A stretch of DNA of 64,000 nucleotides from a virus, in IMG/VR virus record IMGVR_UViG_3300044653_000098, positions 64,001 through 128,000 of that record, one strand, 5' to 3'. Position 1 is the stretch's first letter. Each line of letters opens with the position of its first letter. The notes under the pieces were generated by a model. That model searched no databases. It was not told the origin of the DNA and was given only the letters and a program-made list of their open reading frames with translations. Of the stretch, positions 54,383 through 62,721 are shown piece after piece. A program made the translations under genes and the position numbers.

Positions 54383-55048
54383 TTGCTGATCGCGATGCCG
54401 GTAGACAGCCACTCCCCCGGTGATCTCGCTCACTCCCTAGATAGCTGGAGCCGGGTGCGGCCGCCGGGCGGCGAGCCTCTGGAGTTCATCTTCGCGGTCG
54501 AGCCTGACCCCGACATCGTCCCGGAGGTCATCAACCGCTACGCCGGGACGTTCAGCTGGAAGGTGGACATCTTCCAGAACGAGAACCGGCTGGGCCCGGA
54601 CCTCAACCCCGCCCACGTGCTGGAGCTGGCGTTCCGGCGCTCGCCTCAGGTGGTGTTCGCTGACGCCAGCGCGATCGTGTCCACCGACGTTGCCGAGTAC
54701 CTGAGCTGGGCCCTGGAGTGGTTCGAGCACGATGCTCAGTGCCTGGCGGTCTGCACCTTCGAGGAGCACGGCACCTCGCTCAACCCGTCTCTCGCGCGCA
54801 CCGACTTCGCGTTCACCCCGGCCTGCTTCGGGATGTGGGGAAACCGGTGGGACCGGATGCGGCACTGGGATTTCAAGGCCACGGATGACTTCCGGTGGAC
54901 CGACTACGTCCAGCAGCGCCACCTCATGCCCACCGGCCGGTATGTGATCAAGCCCTGGCAGTCCCGCTCGCAGCCGATCCGCGGACCGCGGTCCGCCAGC
55001 TTCGAGCAGGAGGTCGAGCCTCAGCCGACCTACAGCCTGACGGCCTGA
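54383..55048 (+). CDS. Glycosyltransferase-like protein (degenerate paralog of 52136)
   Basis: FGMWGNRW and P..SRS motifs shared with 52136; DxD not evident. Confidence 0.6.
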   Translation: MLIAMPVDSHSPGDLAHSLDSWSRVRPPGGEPLEFIFAVEPDPDIVPEVINRYAGTFSWKVDIFQNENRLGPDLNPAHVLELAFRRSPQVVFADASAIVSTDVAEYLSWALEWFEHDAQCLAVCTFEEHGTSLNPSLARTDFAFTPACFGMWGNRWDRMRHWDFKATDDFRWTDYVQQRHLMPTGRYVIKPWQSRSQPIRGPRSASFEQEVEPQPTYSLTA

Positions 55049-55073
55049 TGAAGCCCTGCACCGTAACAGGTGC

Positions 55074-55310
55074 ATGCCAAGAGGATGGGATCCCGCGTAC
55101 GACCCGTTCGGCGGGTACCGGGCAACCCGGTCGTTCCTGGGTGTCCGGATCAGCGACAAGACTTTCTCAGACGACTCGATCGACAAGATCCTGAAGGACG
55201 GCAAGGACCCGAAGAAGGTGCTCGGCAAAAAGATGAAAGAGCTGAGCATCAAGGACAAGCAGAAGCTGATCAGGCGTATCGAGGCCCGTGAGAAAAAGAG
55301 AAACCAGTGA
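55074..55310 (+). CDS. Small basic hypothetical protein
   Basis: Lys-rich ORF with GTAACA-N5-ATG context. Confidence 0.6.
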   Translation: MPRGWDPAYDPFGGYRATRSFLGVRISDKTFSDDSIDKILKDGKDPKKVLGKKMKELSIKDKQKLIRRIEAREKKRNQ

Positions 55311-55342
55311 GGAAGAGATGATCTTACGCAGGGGGAGACCCA

Positions 55343-55426
55343 GCCCCCGTAGCCCAAAACACCAAGAGGCAGAGGCGCCGCTTTAAAACCGGTCGAGTGT
55401 GGGTTCGAGCCCCACCGGGGGCACCA
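55343..55426 (+). tRNA. tRNA-Leu(TAA), enlarged D-loop
   Basis: GCCCCCG/CGGGGGC acceptor, loop TTTAAAA, TTCGAG T-loop, encoded CCA. Confidence 0.75.
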
Positions 55427-55459
55427 GATGGAAGTTCTGCAAGATGGTCCGGAAAAAGA

Positions 55460-55489
55460 GTTGACACGGGTCTACCGGCATCGTAAGGT
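55460..55489 (+). promoter_or_regulatory. sigma70 promoter of the tRNA array with overlapping operator
   Basis: TTGACA(55461)-N17-TAAGGT(55484); ATG 6 nt downstream (leaderless). Confidence 0.85.
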
Positions 55490-55495
55490 GGGTAC

Positions 55496-55594
55496 ATGAT
55501 GCAACGCAGGTACTCAGAGCAGCGGAATCAGGATGGGCATTTTGCCATCCCGTGCCCCGCCATGCTGGGGACCAGCGAGGTGGCTTCTGGGTAG
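55496..55594 (+). CDS. Leader peptide (32 aa) MMQRRYSEQRNQDGHFAIPCPAMLGTSEVASG
   Basis: ATG at the predicted +1; the 3' end overlaps the antiterminator strand. Confidence 0.7.
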   Translation: MMQRRYSEQRNQDGHFAIPCPAMLGTSEVASG

Positions 55595-55654
55595 AGGAAG
55601 ATCAAGCTCGGAAGCCGCCCGCAGGGACAGAAGCCCTCGCGGGCGGTTTGCGTT
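55575..55654 (+). terminator. Attenuator: antiterminator (55575-55592/55606-55622) versus terminator (55612-55622/55639-55649)
   Basis: Mutually exclusive pairings sharing AAGCCGCCCGC; the terminator ends in TTTGCGTT. Confidence 0.7.
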
Positions 55655-55666
55655 ACAGCTGAACAT

Positions 55667-55737
55667 GGGGAGCAGGCGACGGCTGCCGGCGGGATTCCAA
55701 ACCCCGCGACGAGTGGGTTCGACTCCTACGCACCCTG
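55667..55737 (+). tRNA. tRNA-Trp(CCA), atypical D-arm
   Basis: Loop TTCCAAA; T-arm GTGGG-TTCGACT-CCTAC. Confidence 0.65.
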
Positions 55738-55738
55738 C

Positions 55739-55834
55739 GGAGCACCACCCTGAAGGCTGGGGTGAACGTGCCAGCAGATTGATAACTCAACAGCGTGAGC
55801 ATCGCCCAGGGCGCCATCCCTGGGCACAAGCTCC
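55739..55834 (+). ncRNA. Unassigned multibranch structured RNA
   Basis: GGAGC/GCTCC closing stem enclosing hairpins CACCCT/GGGGTG, TTGA/TCAA and GCCCAGGG/CCCTGGGC. Confidence 0.5.
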
Positions 55835-55896
55835 CCCGTCCGCGCCTGCGCTCAGGTCTTCCTGGGTCACCATCGGGCACGGCCGGGGGAGATCAT

Positions 55897-55968
55897 GGGG
55901 ATGAGAAGCTGAGGTAGCGACCGCGCCCTGCAAGCGTTGGTGACTCGGTTCGATTCCGAGCATCTCCA
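55897..55968 (+). tRNA. tRNA-Ala(TGC), C33, atypical D-arm
   Basis: GGGGATG/CATCTCC-A with G3:U70; loop CCTGCAA. Confidence 0.7.
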
Positions 55969-56047
55969 CGAGACCGCCGCTTGGGGAACAGCTGGGATGG
56001 CCTGGTACCGGGCGTTACCCCCAGACCTGAAACGGAGCGGCGGCAGA

Positions 56048-56122
56048 CTGGGTATAGCTCAGGTTGGTCAGAGCGCGCGGTCCGGGGCCGCGAGGCCGCT
56101 GGTTCAAATCCAGCTACTCAGA
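56048..56122 (+). tRNA. tRNA-Pro(CGG), C33
   Basis: CGCGG-TCCGGGG-CCGCG. Confidence 0.85.
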
Positions 56123-56124
56123 CC

Positions 56125-56254
56125 GGGGGGAGATGCGGGTTCGAGTCCCGCCCTGTCCGTGAAAACTCTCCGCGGTGGCCGATCTGCAGGCGGCTGGCCG
56201 GCCAGGGCCCTGGTCAGGAGAGGGACAGGTAGTCCAATTGGCAGGACGCCCCCT
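56125..56254 (+). ncRNA. Circularly permuted tRNA-like RNA (3' half before 5' half)
   Basis: GGGGG-AGAT-T arm-CCTGTCC-G (56125-56159), then GGACAGG-TA-D arm-G-CCCCC (56223-56254). Confidence 0.85.
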
Positions 56255-56259
56255 ACATT

Positions 56260-56379
56260 TTCTGGTGCGGCTTACCACGATCCGGCTGGGGTTCGGGAGA
56301 AGAACGTCCGGGAGGTCGAGCGCAATACGCGGGCGCAGTTCCGCGCAAACGGCGGCCGGATGCTGTGGGAGCACCAGAA
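56260..56379 (+). ncRNA. Unassigned long-stem structured RNA
   Basis: Nested stems TTCTGGTGC/GCACCAGAA, CCACG/TGTGG and ATCCGGCTG/CGGCCGGAT. Confidence 0.55.
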
Positions 56380-56382
56380 CAA

Positions 56383-56457
56383 CGGGATGTCGCGTAAGGG
56401 TTAGCGCGCCTGGTTTGGGACCAGGCAGTCAAGGTTCGAGTCCTTGTATCCCGACCA
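56383..56457 (+). tRNA. tRNA-Pro(TGG)
   Basis: CCTGG-TTTGGGA-CCAGG; encoded CCA. Confidence 0.9.
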
Positions 56458-56524
56458 GCGGCCAGGATGTTCACCGTGTCCTGGTGCAGCGGAGGCTCGT
56501 TAGGGAGCACCCAACGGTGACGGC

Positions 56525-56597
56525 GGGTCTGTAGCTCAGACGGGAGAGCGGTCCCCTGAAAAGGGACAGGTGGAGGATTCGATCGCCTCCGGGCCCA
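56525..56597 (+). tRNA. tRNA-Phe(GAA)
   Basis: GTCCC-CTGAAAA-GGGAC. Confidence 0.85.
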
Positions 56598-56615
56598 CGC
56601 TGTAGCAGGTAGCCC

Positions 56616-56687
56616 GCCGCACTAACACAATGGCTAGTGTGTCTGTCTTCCAAGCAGAGAATGCGAGTTCGATTCTCGCGTGCGGCT
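56616..56687 (+). tRNA. tRNA-Gly(TCC)
   Basis: TCTGT-CTTCCAA-GCAGA; U73. Confidence 0.9.
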
Positions 56688-56792
56688 CGGTGACGAGCAG
56701 AGCTGAAACCTCTGTGATCGCGCAAGTGGCTGGCAGGCCACGGCCGGGCAGGCTCTGGGGGACTGCCATCTCGCAGGGGTGCCCGGTTCTGA

Positions 56793-56865
56793 GTGCCGCT
56801 AGCACAACGGTTACTGCACCTGACTCTTAATCAGGGGGTTCTCGGTTCGAGTCCGAGGCGGCGCA
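56793..56865 (+). tRNA. tRNA-Lys(CTT)
   Basis: CCTGA-CTCTTAA-TCAGG. Confidence 0.9.
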
Positions 56866-56866
56866 C

Positions 56867-56942
56867 GGGCGAGTACGTCCAACTGGCAGAGCGGCCGGCC
56901 TCAAAATCCGCGCGGTTGCGGGTTCGACTCCCGCCTCGCCTA
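56867..56942 (+). tRNA. tRNA-Leu(CAA), short variable arm
   Basis: Loop CTCAAAA, imperfect anticodon stem, canonical T-arm. Confidence 0.75.
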
Positions 56943-56947
56943 CACGA

Positions 56948-57021
56948 TGGAGCATGGTGGTAATTCGGTATCCCACTGGGCCCTGAACCCAGGGATCCAG
57001 GTTCGAGTCCTGGTGCTCCAG
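56948..57021 (+). tRNA. tRNA-Gln(CTG), C33
   Basis: CTGGG-CCCTGAA-CCCAG; U1-A72, G73. Confidence 0.85.
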
Positions 57022-57023
57022 CT

Positions 57024-57116
57024 AGTCCTGGCCCGGCTTTCCCTGAATTGACAGGCGACCCCGAAGCGTGACGGCGCATAAGGGGACGGGCACGACGGTG
57101 CGGTCCGGCCGGGACT
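57024..57116 (+). ncRNA. Unassigned multibranch structured RNA
   Basis: AGTCCTGGCC/GGCCGGGACT closing stem with three internal hairpins, two carrying GACG loops. Confidence 0.5.
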
Positions 57117-57120
57117 TCAT

Positions 57121-57195
57121 GCCTCCGTAGCTCAATGGTGGAGCAGTGCCCCCGTAAGGCACAGGCCGCAGGGTCAGTACCTGCCGGAGGCTCCA
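57121..57195 (+). tRNA. tRNA-Thr(CGT), C33, non-canonical T-loop
   Basis: GTGCC-CCCGTAA-GGCAC; T-loop GTCAGTA; encoded CCA. Confidence 0.8.
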
Positions 57196-57196
57196 T

Positions 57197-57285
57197 GCGC
57201 TCGTGGCGGAATAGGTATACGCGCTAGCCCGAGATGCTAGTGCTCCGCGAGGGGCGTGCGGGTTCGACTCCCGCCGAGCGCACCA
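57197..57285 (+). tRNA. tRNA-Leu(GAG), C33
   Basis: CTAGC-CCGAGAT-GCTAG, long variable arm, encoded CCA. Confidence 0.85.
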
Positions 57286-57286
57286 C

Positions 57287-57355
57287 GCCGCCGCGCACGG
57301 CTTGCGGCCCGGCTCCTGTAAAGCTGGAGGTCCGGATCGGCACCGGACGGCGGCT
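57287..57355 (+). tRNA. tRNA-Thr(TGT), C33, degenerate D/T loops
   Basis: GCCGCCG/CGGCGGC-T acceptor; CGGCT-CCTGTAA-AGCTG. Confidence 0.65.
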
Positions 57356-57359
57356 CTGC

Positions 57360-57433
57360 TCCGGGATCGGGTTGCCGGCATCCCGACGCGGCTTTGGACC
57401 GCGGTCACGCTGGTTCGAGTCCAGCTCCCGGAA
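57360..57433 (+). tRNA. tRNA-Gln(TTG)
   Basis: CGCGG-CTTTGGA-CCGCG. Confidence 0.8.
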
Positions 57434-57437
57434 CGAT

Positions 57438-57509
57438 GCCTGCCTAGTGATAACGGCAGCACGCGTCCTTGGTAAGGACGTAGACGGAGTTCAATTCTCC
57501 GGGCAGGCT
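57438..57509 (+). tRNA. tRNA-Thr(GGT)
   Basis: CGTCC-TTGGTAA-GGACG. Confidence 0.9.
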
Positions 57510-57513
57510 CTGT

Positions 57514-57586
57514 GTGGACGTGGCGAAGCTGGTATCGCATCTGCTTGCCAAGCAGAAGATCGCGGGTTCGATCCCCGTCGTCCACT
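57514..57586 (+). tRNA. tRNA-Gly(GCC)
   Basis: TCTGC-TTGCCAA-GCAGA. Confidence 0.9.
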
Positions 57587-57683
57587 CTCCGGCTGCGGTG
57601 TTCACCGTGCCAATGCGAAGGGCCCGACAGGTTCGGTAACCCGGATGGATAAGTCTGCTAGGCCAGCAGGCAAACGGTTGAAT

Positions 57684-57767
57684 GTCCCGGTGGCGTAATT
57701 GGTAGCCGCGCACGGCTCAGACCCGTGTGCCTTAACGGGCGTGAGGGTTCGACCCCCTCCTGGGACA
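57684..57767 (+). tRNA. tRNA-Leu(CAG)
   Basis: CACGG-CTCAGAC-CCGTG, long variable arm. Confidence 0.9.
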
Positions 57768-57773
57768 CGATCG

Positions 57774-57853
57774 GAACTCCCTCCCGCCGCGGTTCGCGAA
57801 CGCGGTGATCAGGAGAGCTAAGGGTCTGGCCCCGCGCCCGGCCGGAGGAGTTC
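57774..57853 (+). ncRNA. Unassigned structured RNA
   Basis: GAACTCC/GGAGTTC closing stem; CGCCGCG/CGCGGTG and TCTGGCC/GGCCGGA hairpins. Confidence 0.5.
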
Positions 57854-57887
57854 ACAGTCAATGCGCATGGCAAGCGGGGCGTGACAT

Positions 57888-57961
57888 GGTCTGCGACCAG
57901 CTGGAGGTTGGAGGCGGCCTGCAAAGCCGTCAGCAGCGGGGTTCGATTCCCCGGCGGGCCT
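57888..57961 (+). tRNA. tRNA-Cys(GCA)
   Basis: GCGGC-CTGCAAA-GCCGT; U73. Confidence 0.8.
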
Positions 57962-57965
57962 CTAA

Positions 57966-58163
57966 CAGGCTCCGTCTGCGTGGATTTCGCAGTTCGGGCC
58001 GTTCCCCGGCGGGATGGCATTGGCGGAGGCTGCGGCCGCGCTCAGGAGGGTGCCGAGTGCAATACCCGCGGCGAGAAGGGCTGCTAGAAGTCGGTAGCGC
58101 ATGGTCTTCACCTTTCTGCTGGTAGCTGTCACGGTACGCCTAAGTGATTGTTCTGCACAGGCA
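57966..58163 (+). ncRNA. Unassigned ~200-nt structured RNA
   Basis: GATGGC/GCTGTC and TGGCGGAG/TTTCTGCTG stems enclosing GCCGCG/CGCGGC and GAAGG/TCTTC branches. Confidence 0.45.
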
Positions 58164-58164
58164 T

Positions 58165-58249
58165 GGAGCGGTGGCCGAGCGGCCTATGGCGGTGTCCTGC
58201 TAAGGCACTCACCGGAAACGGTGCGCGGGTTCAAATCCCGCTCGCTCCT
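58165..58249 (+). tRNA. tRNA-Ser(GCT)
   Basis: GTGTC-CTGCTAA-GGCAC, long variable arm. Confidence 0.9.
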
Positions 58250-58252
58250 CTT

Positions 58253-58337
58253 GGAAGGTAGCGCCGAGGATGGCGAACTGGTCCCGAAAACCAGGCCGGG
58301 GTGAGTAGCCCCGAGGGTTCGATTCCTTTACCTTCCT
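58253..58337 (+). tRNA. tRNA-Ser(CGA), C33
   Basis: CTGGT-CCCGAAA-ACCAG, long variable arm. Confidence 0.8.
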
Positions 58338-58341
58338 CTGA

Positions 58342-58415
58342 CCGCCCCGGCTCAGCCGGTGAAGAGGCCCGTCTGATAAGCGGGTAGTCGCATGGTTCAA
58401 CTCCATGGGGGCGGA
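58342..58415 (+). tRNA. tRNA-Ile(GAT)
   Basis: CCCGT-CTGATAA-GCGGG. Confidence 0.8.
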
Positions 58416-58416
58416 C

Positions 58417-58491
58417 TGGCCAGTAGCACAAAGGTAAGTGCACCCGTCTTATAAGCGGGCGATACGGAGTCAAGACCCGGCTGGCCTACCA
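58417..58491 (+). tRNA. tRNA-Ile(TAT), aberrant T-arm
   Basis: CCCGT-CTTATAA-GCGGG; encoded CCA. Confidence 0.7.
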
Positions 58492-58564
58492 GCTCCCCGC
58501 GCCCGACTGGACGGGCACCGGACTTTTAATCCGGACTGACTGGGTTCGATTCCTTGGGGGAGCA
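58492..58564 (+). tRNA. tRNA-Lys(TTT)
   Basis: CCGGA-CTTTTAA-TCCGG. Confidence 0.85.
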
Positions 58565-58569
58565 CGCAA

Positions 58570-58641
58570 GCGTCGCTGGTGTAAAGGAAGCGCGCTCGCC
58601 TTCTAAGCGAGATGGTCTCAGTTCGATTCTGGGGCGACGCA
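58570..58641 (+). tRNA. tRNA-Arg(TCT)
   Basis: CTCGC-CTTCTAA-GCGAG. Confidence 0.9.
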
Positions 58642-58642
58642 C

Positions 58643-58713
58643 GGCTCGTTAGGTTAACGGCAGACCGCCTGGTTCTCAGCCAGGGAGCAGGGGTTCAATT
58701 CCCCTACGAGCTA
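58643..58713 (+). tRNA. tRNA-Glu(CTC)
   Basis: CCTGG-TTCTCAG-CCAGG. Confidence 0.9.
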
Positions 58714-58717
58714 CTTT

Positions 58718-58795
58718 GCCGCTGTTACTCTGATGGTAAGGGGTAGCCGGGTTTTCACCCCGGACACGACGCGGGTTCGAGTCCCGTCAGCGGCT
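58718..58795 (+). tRNA. tRNA-Glu(TTC)
   Basis: CCGGG-TTTTCAC-CCCGG. Confidence 0.8.
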
Positions 58796-58796
58796 C

Positions 58797-58870
58797 TGCG
58801 GACAGCAGCACCGGTCGTGCTGAACGGTCTCATAAGCCGAGATAGCTGGGTTCGACTCCCAGGTCCGCAA
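58797..58870 (+). tRNA. tRNA-Met(CAT) (elongator or Ile2 type)
   Basis: CGGT-CTCATAA-GCCG; TGCGGAC/GTCCGCA acceptor. Confidence 0.75.
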
Positions 58871-58883
58871 CTGTTCAATCTGA

Positions 58884-58957
58884 TCCGGCGTAGCTCAGTC
58901 TGGTAGAGCAGCCGCCCGTTAAGCGGAAGCGCGCAGGTTCGAGCCCTGCCGCCGGAG
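58884..58957 (+). tRNA. tRNA-Asn(GTT), C33
   Basis: CCGC-CCGTTAA-GCGG; U1-A72, G73. Confidence 0.85.
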
Positions 58958-58969
58958 CGCAGTAATCAT

Positions 58970-59042
58970 GGTTCTGTAGCTCAGTGGTCAGAGCGTCCGC
59001 CTGTCGAGCGGAGGGCCGCGGGTTCGACTCCCGTCAGGACCG
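58970..59042 (+). tRNA. tRNA-Asp(GTC)
   Basis: TCCGC-CTGTCGA-GCGGA; G73. Confidence 0.9.
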
Positions 59043-59053
59043 CGCATGATAAA

Positions 59054-59128
59054 GGGTGCTTAGCTCAGCGGAAGAGCAGCAGCACGACACGCTGAAGGCC
59101 GCAGGTTCGATCCCTGCAGCGCCCACCA
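59054..59128 (+). tRNA. tRNA-Val(GAC), C33
   Basis: CAGC-ACGACAC-GCTG; encoded CCA. Confidence 0.85.
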
Positions 59129-59216
59129 TGCGCGTTACGCCGGAGAACGGCCGCCCAATACGCGCAGCAGGGGACTGTCGTACAGGCGGAGGAAGTCGGC
59201 TTGGCGGTCCCAACTA

Positions 59217-59288
59217 GCGTCCATCGTTCAACGGATAGGACGGCAGGCTACGGACCTGCTGATGGGAGTTCGAGTCTTCCTGGACGCA
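59217..59288 (+). tRNA. tRNA-Arg(ACG)
   Basis: GCAGG-CTACGGA-CCTGC. Confidence 0.9.
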
Positions 59289-59289
59289 C

Positions 59290-59361
59290 GGGCCGTTAGC
59301 TCAGCGGCAGAGCGGCGCCCCCACACGGCGCGCAGCGGAGGTTCGAGTCCTCCATGGCCCA
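59290..59361 (+). tRNA. tRNA-Val(CAC), C33
   Basis: GCGCC-CCCACAC-GGCGC. Confidence 0.85.
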
Positions 59362-59363
59362 CT

Positions 59364-59434
59364 GAGGGCGAACCGCATGGCGCGGAGGCTGGTTGTGAGC
59401 CAGTCAGCAGCGGGTTCGAATCCCGTCGTCCTCC
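59364..59434 (+). tRNA. tRNA-His(GTG), no encoded G-1
   Basis: GCTGG-TTGTGAG-CCAGT; C73. Confidence 0.75.
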
Positions 59435-59520
59435 CTTTCCCCCGGTCGTAGGGCCGCACCCGGCAGGGTGATCCGGAGAGCCTGTGTCCATCAGGGCGGG
59501 GATCAAAAACTCCGGGCTAT

Positions 59521-59601
59521 GGCGGAGTGACCCGAGATGGCATGGGAGCGGTCTGTAAAACCGTCGCTTCGGCACGGCTGGTTCGATTCCAGCGTCCGCC
59601 A
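59521..59601 (+). tRNA. tRNA-Tyr(GTA)
   Basis: GCGGT-CTGTAAA-ACCGT, GC-TTCG-GC variable arm. Confidence 0.85.
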
Positions 59602-59656
59602 CTCTCCGGGTGCAGGAGCCACACGGCTTGGCCGCCGTGCCTGCCCCGGAGCGTAA

Positions 59657-59728
59657 GCGCCTATCGTTCAGTGGATAGGATCGCGGCCCCCGAAGCCGCA
59701 GACGCTGGTTCGAGTCCAGCTGGGCGCA
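59657..59728 (+). tRNA. tRNA-Arg(CCG), C33
   Basis: GCGGC-CCCCGAA-GCCGC. Confidence 0.85.
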
Positions 59729-59729
59729 C

Positions 59730-59804
59730 TGGCCTGAAGCTCAATGGACGAGCGGTCGCCCCCTAAGCGAACGGCTGCGGGTTCGAGTCCCGTCAGGCCG
59801 GCCA
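59730..59804 (+). tRNA. tRNA-Arg(CCT), C33
   Basis: TCGC-CCCCTAA-GCGA; encoded CCA. Confidence 0.8.
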
Positions 59805-60016
59805 CATCGATGCTCACGCTGCGAGTTGTCCTGGTATCCGGTTCGGCGTTTCTTGCCCGTCGTCCTATCCGGCCCGGCCCCGTCCAAGCGCTCCCGCGGA
59901 GATAGCTGTTGTGGCGGGGCCCGGTCGTATGATAGAGTTGCTTTCGTAACCGCCCGGACCTGCCTATCAGTGCGACGCAGCCGGGCGGACCGCTTTTCCG
60001 GGCCGATGAGCCGGCC

Positions 60017-60511
60017 ATGGACCTGTCCGGCGCCACCCTGGCTGAGCTGAACGCCGAGCTGATCACGCGCACCGCCCCGGTCGAGTCGCTCGACCGGCTG
60101 TTTGCGTTGCCTGATTGGGTGACCGACCCGGATCTGTGCAACTCCTACGAGGTGCTGGTCGCCCGGCTCCGGAGAGAGACCGACCACCTGCCCCTGAACA
60201 CGCTCCAGCAGATGAGGATCGAGCGGATCGTCTTCAACTACATCGTGCTGAAGTTCAGGGAGTCTCACGCGGGCAGCGACCACCAGTTCACGGACCACCT
60301 CAAGGACTGGAACACCTACTGGGCCTCGATCACCCGGGAGTTCGACGCGGTGCTGCGCGCCTGGCAGCCCAAAGAGCAGGACGCGATCATGCACATGGTG
60401 AAGCTGGCCGTCGAAGAGGTGATCGCGACGATCGAGGACACCGGGGTGCGCAATGACCTCGTGCGGAGGTTCCCCGACACCTTCAAGCGCATGGGCCTGA
60501 TCAGCGCCTGA
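60017..60511 (+). CDS. Hypothetical helical protein (possible terminase small subunit)
   Basis: Strong coding signal; first gene of the morphogenesis block. Function guessed from size and position only. Confidence 0.55.
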   Translation: MDLSGATLAELNAELITRTAPVESLDRLFALPDWVTDPDLCNSYEVLVARLRRETDHLPLNTLQQMRIERIVFNYIVLKFRESHAGSDHQFTDHLKDWNTYWASITREFDAVLRAWQPKEQDAIMHMVKLAVEEVIATIEDTGVRNDLVRRFPDTFKRMGLISA

Positions 60512-61103: not shown

Positions 61104-62104
61104 CGTACCTGGAGAGGCTCCTCGCGCTCACGCCGCAGACGCCCGAGGCGTCGACCGTGCCCAAGCCCATCCACCCTGGTGGCCCTGGTCTCTGGCACCA
61201 TAAGAAATGGATGGCGCCACCCTACGTGGAGCACGTCGCCCAGGCTCTGATGCGCCGGGGCAAGTCCGAGTCCGAGGCGTACCACCTGGCGGTCGGATTG
61301 ATGCACTCATGGAGTGCAGGTCACGACGGTCATGGACACCACGTGCACGCCGACGTCAAGGCGGCGGCCGCCGCCAACCTCGCCAAGTGGGAGGAGCTGC
61401 GCGGCCGCGCCCACGCCAGCCACTTGGCCAAGAAGGCAAAGGGGCACAGCAAGAGCCATCACGATCTCGCGGCGAGCGCTGCGTGGGACGAGATCGGTGA
61501 GCTGATGGTGGAGTTCGCCCGGACCGCCCCGCTCGACATCATGGAGCTGGCCTCGGGCCCGACCTACTTCTACGACGCTTCGATGCTCAAGGGAGGATCG
61601 GAGGCCAGCGCGCCGGGCGCCAAGCGGATCACCAGCAACCAGCTGCGCCAGAATCCGAGCCAGACAGTTGCCGCCAACCCCCCGCTACCGCCCGGCGTCA
61701 CGCTGCCCACCCCGGCCGAGCTGAACCAGCTCGCCGCGAATATCTCCTCGGCCGGCCTGCCCGAGAGCGACCTCATCCGTGGCGCCCGCGATCACGCCAG
61801 GGCAGCAGCCATGAAGATGCAGGCTAACCAGCCGGTCGACGCGCTGCACATGCTGCGCGCGTGCCAGGCGGGGATCGTCTCAGCCCACCGGGAGTACAAC
61901 GGCAGTCTCATCCCGGTGGCCAATGTGTTCAGCGCGCGGCTGGCGCCTGCTGAAGCAGCCTCGGCGCGGGCCGAGATGTTCGAGGGACTGAAGACCCGCG
62001 ACACCTTCCGCCAGCTGGCTACGCAGTGTGCGCAGTTCATCGACCGGATCCGCCGTCACATCTTCCATGGTTTGTATAACCACATGGCCGAGGCAAGGTT
62101 CTAG
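61100..62104 (+). CDS. Hypothetical head-module protein
   Basis: PPYVEHVAQAL..RG.SES.AY..AV...W and A.WEELR motifs resemble actinophage head-region proteins. Confidence 0.6.
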   Translation: MTYLERLLALTPQTPEASTVPKPIHPGGPGLWHHKKWMAPPYVEHVAQALMRRGKSESEAYHLAVGLMHSWSAGHDGHGHHVHADVKAAAAANLAKWEELRGRAHASHLAKKAKGHSKSHHDLAASAAWDEIGELMVEFARTAPLDIMELASGPTYFYDASMLKGGSEASAPGAKRITSNQLRQNPSQTVAANPPLPPGVTLPTPAELNQLAANISSAGLPESDLIRGARDHARAAAMKMQANQPVDALHMLRACQAGIVSAHREYNGSLIPVANVFSARLAPAEAASARAEMFEGLKTRDTFRQLATQCAQFIDRIRRHIFHGLYNHMAEARF

Positions 62105-62721
62105 TGGACAAGGTCACCCGCCTGCTGCAGCTCGCTGCACAGGACATCAGCCCGTCGAGCACCATGATCTACCTGCAGGCCCCGCCAGCGCTGTTTCCTG
62201 GTGAGGTGATCGATAAGCCCGGCCACCTCACCGTGGTGTATCTGGGCAAGGTCGGGCAGGCCGAGTTCACCACCGCCTGCGAGCGGGCGAAGTCCGCGGC
62301 CGGCGCGGTGCCGCCGATCCACGCCACGGTTGGCGGCCTTGGCTCGTTCGAGCCGACGGAGAACTCCGACGGCAAGAAGGTCTACTACTGCCCCGTCTAC
62401 GGCGACGGCATTCACTGGCTGCGTGCGCTGCTGGCCGACCTCGCCGCGCCGAACGCGCTGCCGTTCGTCCCGCACATCACCCTGGCCTACGCGGACGAGG
62501 GCGATGACCCCCCGCCTCCGGTCACCAGCGGCCGGCTGTGCTTCACCCAGCTGTACGTCGCCCGCGGCGCGCAGATCTGCGCCTACCCGCTGAAAGGCGG
62601 CCACGAGCCGCACGGTTCCGGTCAGCACATGCGGGACCGGCGGCCGGGCGAGGCTCCGCTGAGCCGGATCGACGCTGTGGTGGAGCTGGCCGACAAGGTG
62701 GCGCCGGGATGGCGTACCTAA
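62104..62721 (+). CDS. 2H phosphoesterase (2'-5' RNA ligase/Acb1-like)
   Basis: Two HxT motifs: GHLTVVYLG and PHITLAY. Confidence 0.85.
   Translation: MDKVTRLLQLAAQDISPSSTMIYLQAPPALFPGEVIDKPGHLTVVYLGKVGQAEFTTACERAKSAAGAVPPIHATVGGLGSFEPTENSDGKKVYYCPVYGDGIHWLRALLADLAAPNALPFVPHITLAYADEGDDPPPPVTSGRLCFTQLYVARGAQICAYPLKGGHEPHGSGQHMRDRRPGEAPLSRIDAVVELADKVAPGWRT

Follow-up and report, generated by a model that had tools for sequence, protein, structure and literature searches.

The system closest in working logic to the locus described here is the whiB7/wblC attenuator of Actinobacteria. Efficient translation of its upstream open reading frame (uORF) leads to a Rho-independent terminator, and stalled translation leads to an antiterminator and read-through (bioRxiv 10.1101/2023.06.02.543512). 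The Mycobacterium smegmatis whiB7 uORF encodes a long, diverse peptide that contains every amino acid except Cys, and whiB7 is activated by knock-down of amino-acid biosynthesis, transfer RNA (tRNA) and synthetase genes (bioRxiv 10.1101/2023.06.02.543512). Classical amino-acid attenuators (trpL, hisL, leuL and ilv-type) occur in Actinobacteria too (PMC1262725, PMC11857589). The leaderless polycysteine small open reading frames (sORFs) of mycobacteria act on translation, by unmasking a ribosome-binding site, and sense Cys only (bioRxiv 10.1101/834739). The locus in question, a promoter, a 32-codon open reading frame (ORF) and a terminator-like hairpin ahead of an array of tRNA genes, lies in a stretch of 64,000 nucleotides (nt), hereafter the window. 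The window comprises bases 64001-128000 of one 141.7-kb contig (IMG/VR record IMGVR_UViG_3300044653_000098; G+C 64-70%) with phage-like gene content, whose host is likely a high-GC actinobacterium. The whiB7 uORF and the leaderless sensory sORFs are both found in Actinobacteria, and thus provide precedent in the likely host group.

Large phage tRNA arrays have been discussed as a means of compensating for codon usage, of replacing host tRNAs that have been degraded and of escaping anticodon nucleases. To our knowledge, very little is known of their control, and a full-text literature search turned up no report of phage tRNA genes preceded by a leader-peptide attenuator. We assign an even chance to the reading that the locus is a ribosome-dependent (leader-peptide) transcription attenuator heading a phage tRNA cassette, by which tRNA output would probably be tied to how well ribosomes translate. 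The features on which this reading is built are as follows, in window coordinates.

55461-55489, plus strand: promoter, with -35 TTGACA (55461-55466), a 17-nt spacer and -10 TAAGGT (55484-55489).
55496-55594, plus strand: leader ORF of 32 codons and TAG, with a predicted leaderless start; peptide MMQRRYSEQRNQDGHFAIPCPAMLGTSEVASG.
55531-55550, plus strand: hairpin H1 (GGATGG ... CCATCC), within the ORF; stem kept and loop variable in close relatives.
55557-55583, plus strand: hairpin B ('region 1:2' of a classical attenuator), which competes with the lower stem of the antiterminator.
55572-55625, plus strand: antiterminator (AT), with upper stem 55582-55592/55606-55616 and lower stem 55572-55581/55617-55625.
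55615-55646, with a U-rich tail to 55654, plus strand: terminator-like hairpin (T), consisting of CCGCCCGCAGGG, a 7-nt loop and CCCT-C-GCGGGCGG, then TTTGCGTT.
55655-55666, plus strand: conserved 5' leader of the first tRNA, ACAGCTGAACAT (CAACTGAACAT in relatives), kept even in the distant relative L005.
55667-59804, plus strand: tRNA array of ~34 genes, from a degenerate Trp(CCA) at 55667-55738 and Ala(TGC) at 55897-55969 to Arg(CCT) at 59730-59804.

In the proposed mechanism, host RNA polymerase would start at the phage promoter, the transcript would begin with the AUG at 55496, and the leaderless 32-codon ORF would be translated. The last ~7 codons and the stop would form the 5' strand of AT, whose 3' strand would include the first 8 nt of the T arm. 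A ribosome reaching the stop would cover the AT 5' strand, T would fold, and transcription would end after ~155 nt. If the ribosome were delayed earlier, AT would stay and the polymerase would enter the array. The most effective stall would be at about codons 19-22, where in the model hairpin B would be blocked too. With 18 of the 20 amino acids in the peptide, shortage of many charged tRNAs could in principle slow the ribosome.

The strongest argument for an attenuator comes from the architecture: the sole recognisable promoter is separated by T from a 4-6-kb tRNA cassette that is kept in two lineages. In relaxed scans of the plus strand (55000-60100), the promoter was the sole promoter-like site, and outside tRNA bodies T was the sole terminator-like one. 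Any transcript of the array that begins at this promoter or further upstream must therefore run through T, which speaks for conditional read-through; an unconditional efficient terminator before a selected array would make little sense. By its sequence T is a predicted terminator, GC-rich and of 12 bp with one bulge, situated 20 nt before the first tRNA. A simple scanner missed both elements, its -10 rule wanting a closer match to TATAAT and its U-tract rule being strict. No further promoters or repeated motifs were found in the array spacers (plus-strand promoter scan of 55000-60100; spacer motif search).

The original prediction had placed TTGACA, 17 nt, TAAGGT, 6 nt and the ATG at 55496 in this order, and all of these coordinates check; the 6 nt between -10 and ATG are GGGTAC. 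The promoter agrees with Sigma-70/HrdB-type promoters in all six positions of the -35 (6/6) and in having TAAGGT at 17 bp (the -10 rule being TANNNT, with a spacing of 16-18 bp). The last T of the -10 lies 7 nt before the A of the ATG, which is the predicted +1 and stands in a C-A context, so the transcript is predicted to be leaderless. The C-A context is kept in two close relatives, L001 and L007, and the promoter itself is conserved in L001, L007 and L005.

The -35 is embedded in a phage-wide motif, TTGACACGGGTCTACC. In extended form, TTGACACG(T/G)GTCTAC, this palindromic promoter-operator motif has 17 copies in the 141.7-kb contig, on both strands; those in the window are at 46, 712 (minus strand), 23320 and 55461, of which the copies at 55461 and 23320 are the imperfect CGGGTC variant. 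Downstream of most copies comes a 5' leader that is conserved (AGCCCA..AAACGGAGG) and has a strong Shine-Dalgarno sequence. At the tRNA leader, ATGATG follows the motif directly instead.

Relatives of the locus were found via the neighbouring proteins, giving four usable sequences in two lineages. L001 (from IMG/VR) and L007 are close, with a leader ~90% identical to that of the window and flanking tRNA bodies that are much more different. L005 and L006 are distant, the neighbouring glycosyltransferase being 52% identical. The order of elements is kept in all four sequences: promoter (GTTGACACG.GTC.AC), 32-codon ORF, hairpin with the stop at its apex, terminator with U-rich tail, CA(A/G)CTGAACAT and tRNA-Trp. 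The 32-codon ORF is present in L001, L007 and L005/L006. In L005 the antiterminator and the inner terminator stems are made of other sequences: the equivalent two-tier hairpin is formed by CCGGGGT with GCCCCGG, the tail is TTTTT, and the position of H1 is occupied by a different hairpin, ACGGGC/GCCCGT. The homologous +1 of L005 is followed by a ~53-nt 5' leader, a Shine-Dalgarno-like GAGG and then ATG; the ORF is therefore kept with a translation start different from that of the leaderless window (an alternative in-frame GTG start would give 35 codons). The architecture first read from the window alone thus recurs in the diverged L005/L006 with other pairing sequences and another translation start. 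Since the geometry of ORF stop, AT and T is kept while the sequences change, a ribosome-dependent attenuator is favoured.

In three further lineages of the wider phage group (L021, L043 and the P0006 contig), the glycosyltransferase gene is followed directly by protein-coding genes and the locus has no tRNA array, so that array, promoter and leader behave like an inserted cassette. In L021 (9318-10504) and L043 (3572-4763), a homologue of a 164-amino-acid gene comes next after the glycosyltransferase gene. A metagenome pattern scan with the conserved pre-tRNA-Trp leader gave only unrelated low-GC repeats and chance matches, IMG/VR scans gave only the already known relative, and no relative was found in a genome contig collection. 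A phage record collection had no match to the leader DNA or to a neighbouring protein; queried with the array, it gave scattered single-tRNA matches only. The tRNA genes of Streptomyces phage Faust were considered as a comparison array and set aside, being scattered among small genes and not comparable.

Folding of the leader gave a structure more stable than those of shuffled sequences (z = -3.4). The pairing of 55575-55592 with 55606-55622, proposed earlier as an antiterminator, was found, and in nascent RNA it extends to 55572-55625. The stop codon lies at the apex of AT, and AT takes 55615-55622 (8 nt) of the terminator arm. In nascent RNA that ends before the 3' arm of T, AT pairs these first 8 nt with a probability of 0.76-1.0 (mean 0.95) in the window group, and the antiterminator is dominant in the nascent RNA of all four sequences. 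Hairpin B is present in the minimum-energy folds of L001, L007 and window segments. At equilibrium, AT loses to T unless region 1 is masked.

Ribosomes were modelled as a footprint of -12 to +15 around the P-site, in crude equilibrium folding. With the P-site at codons 19-22, the probability of T was 0.00-0.48 (window, L001 and L007), and only these codons lose T; AT wins here because hairpin B, its competitor, is covered by the modelled ribosome as well. For ribosome positions at codons 25-32, the probability of T was 0.96-0.99. In the equilibrium model, transcription terminates if no ribosome is present or if one has reached the stop; a ribosome stalled over region 1 allows read-through. The originally proposed direction of control fits this geometry, in that a modelled ribosome at the stop would cover the AT 5' strand and free T. 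The accompanying idea, a switch opened by stalling at nearly every codon, was not supported, as only P-site codons 19-22 abolish T in the model of this phage.

The T state of L005 is only 3.2 kcal/mol better than AT, compared with 14.4 ± 2.8 kcal/mol in shuffles, none of which was as low (0/300). Barriers for refolding from AT to T, which are crude direct-path estimates, were 3.5 kcal/mol (window), 7.6-7.7 kcal/mol (L001 and L007) and 12.9 kcal/mol (L005). The models suggest that termination would be the default in this phage, with a narrow sensitive window, and that in L005 read-through would be the default, a terminating ribosome being needed to stop transcription.

Several findings on the RNA weigh against an attenuator, as do those on the coding capacity of the ORF that are taken up below. 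In the full window leader, a shortened hairpin A (55582-55616) coexists with T in the minimum-energy and centroid folds. Of the claim that the antiterminator excludes the terminator, the competing pairing is thus real, but the overlap covers 8 of the 12 arm nt and does not force a choice between the shortened hairpin and T. The energy gap between T and AT in the window is ordinary (13.5 versus 16.0 ± 2.9 kcal/mol in shuffles, P 0.2) and the refolding barrier is low, so in this phage the case for a switch depends on a small range of ribosome positions in crude equilibrium folding. In shuffles, upstream RNA often sequesters the GC-rich T arm (mean 0.67), and the U-tract of T is interrupted. RNAalifold on the four sequences, a small set with three near-identical members, gave no net covariation (+1.06), and the independent lineages with the leader number only two.

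Part of this would be expected of a fixed small transcription unit, made up of the promoter, the 32-codon ORF (or a ~155-nt small RNA) and a leaky T, with the tRNAs supplied by constitutive partial read-through and no translation-dependent switching. T is predicted in every unconstrained fold of all four sequences, the energy gap and refolding barrier of the window point to no stable alternative state, and the interrupted U-tract suggests partial termination. Such a unit leaves unexplained why the stop lies at the apex of a hairpin that reaches the T arm, in both lineages and with different sequences; by chance, an ORF ends at a hairpin apex in ~6% (window) or ~8% (L005) of shuffles. It also leaves unexplained the almost iso-energetic antiterminator of L005 and the keeping of the ORF with two initiation modes. 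As a product in its own right the peptide finds no family, neither the window nor the L005 peptide matching Pfam or PHROG. We consider a fixed leaky unit unlikely, though it is the rival that survives best.

The next alternative concerns the ORF, which would be incidental in a non-coding structured leader that serves precursor processing or stability (RNase P or RNase E entry, 5' protection) or polymerase pausing. ORFs of this size are often open by chance in 67% GC DNA. Of the 10 codons that have changed among the three close relatives, 8 are altered non-synonymously, codons 3-5 are different in each of the three, and the last 53 nt of the ORF hold a single change (TCT to CCT, in L007) and no synonymous one. 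From the sequences, this is what one would expect if the peptide sequence of a leader were of little importance and the 3' half also served as RNA structure; a non-coding RNA would account for it equally well. The stems of H1 and hairpin A are kept while their loops vary, the fold is stable relative to shuffles, as given above, and the stretch from T to the first tRNA is conserved even in L005. Alignment of the window and L005 ORFs with MAFFT put the 3' halves out of frame. The N-terminal halves align with in-frame gaps only (3 and 6 nt), and ORF length and stop position are kept across the lineages, which a non-coding leader would not require. Nor would it require a credible start near the promoter, and from this position translation can be predicted: in the window, L001 and L007 the predicted +1 coincides with the A of the ATG, and in L005 the GAGG precedes the start.

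Amino-acid composition also speaks against an incidental ORF. The 32 codons comprise 25 distinct codons for 18 amino acids, without Lys and Trp; these counts, the ORF boundaries (55496-55594) and the Arg, Ser and Gln codons listed at the outset are all present. Diversity was compared with three nulls, namely six-frame windows, tRNA-region windows and stop-free dinucleotide shuffles. At least 18 amino acids in 32 residues is unusual against each of them (P 0.006 six-frame, 0.0055 tRNA region, 0.019 shuffles), tRNA-region windows having a mean of 13.4 different amino acids. The L005 peptide, MKPVWSDRRHDGRTCPFAILPEQANGTGVRLG, served as an out-of-sample test and contains 19 of the 20 amino acids (P 0.0009-0.0016); its similarity to the window peptide is weak (P ~0.01 versus shuffles), and as the two share ancestry the trials are not independent, although most positions have changed. 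With 18-19 of 20 amino acids unexpected in both lineages, we judge the non-coding leader to be rather unlikely, slightly more so than the leaky unit.

A third alternative, a processive antitermination or polymerase-modifying leader RNA (put-like or rrn-leader-like) acting against Rho or pauses over the 4.3-kb untranslated array, draws on the general analogy of promoter-proximal tandem hairpins before a long untranslated operon and is very improbable, since the leader had no match up to E = 1 to any Rfam family other than tRNA and the last hairpin is intrinsic-terminator-like with a U-rich tail in all relatives, a form that put-type elements lack.

Within the attenuator reading, a further question is how broadly the leader could sense. 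The original prediction had the loss of almost any host tRNA delay the ribosome and so bring about transcription of a complete replacement tRNA set. In such an any-tRNA sensor the loss could stem from tRNA-cleaving defences, host shut-off or the demand of phage late genes, and restored decoding would shut the array off again; the phage would have a self-regulating tRNA supply beside a LigT-type RNA-end-healing gene. Amino-acid diversity speaks for broad sensing, and the 32-codon leader contains no run of tandem regulatory codons for a single amino acid. Codon diversity, the argument offered at first, is ordinary against all three nulls once the shuffled-control check is run: at least 25 distinct codons occur with P = 0.07 (six-frame), 0.37 (tRNA region) and 0.38 (dinucleotide shuffles). 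The A/T-ending codons that had been singled out as special, 8 in the leader ORF, are ordinary as well (P = 0.15-0.39). Leader codons are not enriched for the anticodons of the array, 26 of 32 being readable against a null mean of 27.1. The narrow model window and the absence of codon matching weigh against a stall at any codon, and we hold the any-tRNA sensor to be doubtful.

The LigT-like gene (2'-5' RNA ligase superfamily) encodes a 2H phosphoesterase and is located at 62104-62721, 2.3 kb downstream of the array. Its product matches PF13563 and PF02834, both above cut-off, and relatives carry a longer, 526-amino-acid form (L021). A LigT/2H phosphoesterase gene fits an RNA-repair context, for which it is not specific.

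tRNA genes were counted in several ways. ARAGORN with default settings found 30 in 56048-59804. Rfam adds Ile(TAT) at 58417-58488 and Tyr(GTA) at 59521-59601, whose anticodon loops read TAT and GTA, and relaxed ARAGORN adds the degenerate Trp(CCA) at 55667-55738, Ala(TGC) at 55897-55969 and Thr(TGT) at 57290-57356. The earlier figure of 35 tRNAs for all 20 amino acids can accordingly be approached (~35, with full coverage) if weak calls are counted, but default ARAGORN stays at 30. A further tRNA-like gene, an atypical one at 55343-55426, stands not downstream but ahead of the promoter. It has an encoded CCA and could be a Leu(UAA) tRNA whose anticodon stem is mismatched. L001 and L007 have at this locus a 93-nt tRNA-like gene, for which ARAGORN gives an anticodon of 4 bases, and L005 has none.

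The first tRNA after T, Trp(CCA), has mismatches in the acceptor and anticodon stems and is called with relaxed thresholds only; it is clean in L001, L007 and L005. The spacer that follows it (55739-55800) is identical in the window and L001, though the neighbouring tRNA bodies differ strongly, and array spacers may hold functional RNA elements. A 258-nt spacer at 56125-56382 has T-arm-like matches to several tRNAs of the array and may represent a rearranged tRNA or a piece of one. A Lys-rich ORF of 78 amino acids (55074-55310), for which neither Pfam nor PHROG gave a match, is situated between the tRNA region and the glycosyltransferase gene. L001 lacks this ORF, which indicates an insertion or deletion.

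The leader had no Rfam family match (cmscan, E up to 1, over 55000-60300, with nothing in 55427-55666). A T-box riboswitch was considered as well; the Rfam T-box model, which captures the specifier loop and the T-box sequence, had no match, the same scan of 55000-60300 having returned tRNA-type matches and chance hits only.

If the locus is a leader-peptide attenuator, the phage would gauge translation itself and tune its tRNA supply, by a compact regulatory part of ~200 bp. Attenuation would then be extended from the control of amino-acid, synthetase and whiB7 genes to tRNA genes.

Among known systems, classical attenuators share with this locus a promoter, a short ORF, competing 1:2, 2:3 and 3:4 hairpins, and an ORF stop within region 2. 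They differ in that the locus has no run of codons for a single amino acid, an overlap between AT and T that is partial (8 nt), and tRNAs as the regulated genes. The polycysteine sORFs are similar in being a leaderless first cistron on which the position of the ribosome would act on downstream RNA structure; the target here would be a terminator before untranslated genes. The whiB7 uORF resembles the leader in the diversity of its peptide; the leader peptides of the window and L005 exceed the nulls, using 18 and 19 of the 20 amino acids, respectively. Broad sensing is already known from the whiB7 uORF, and the contrast with single-amino-acid attenuators was overstated when it was put forward as the novelty of the locus. 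The locus is not a member of the whiB7 family, having no sequence or Rfam relation to it and no alanine enrichment (Ala being 3 of 32 leader residues). Unlike whiB7, it is phage-borne, would control tRNA genes rather than a transcription factor and, in this phage, has a predicted leaderless start.

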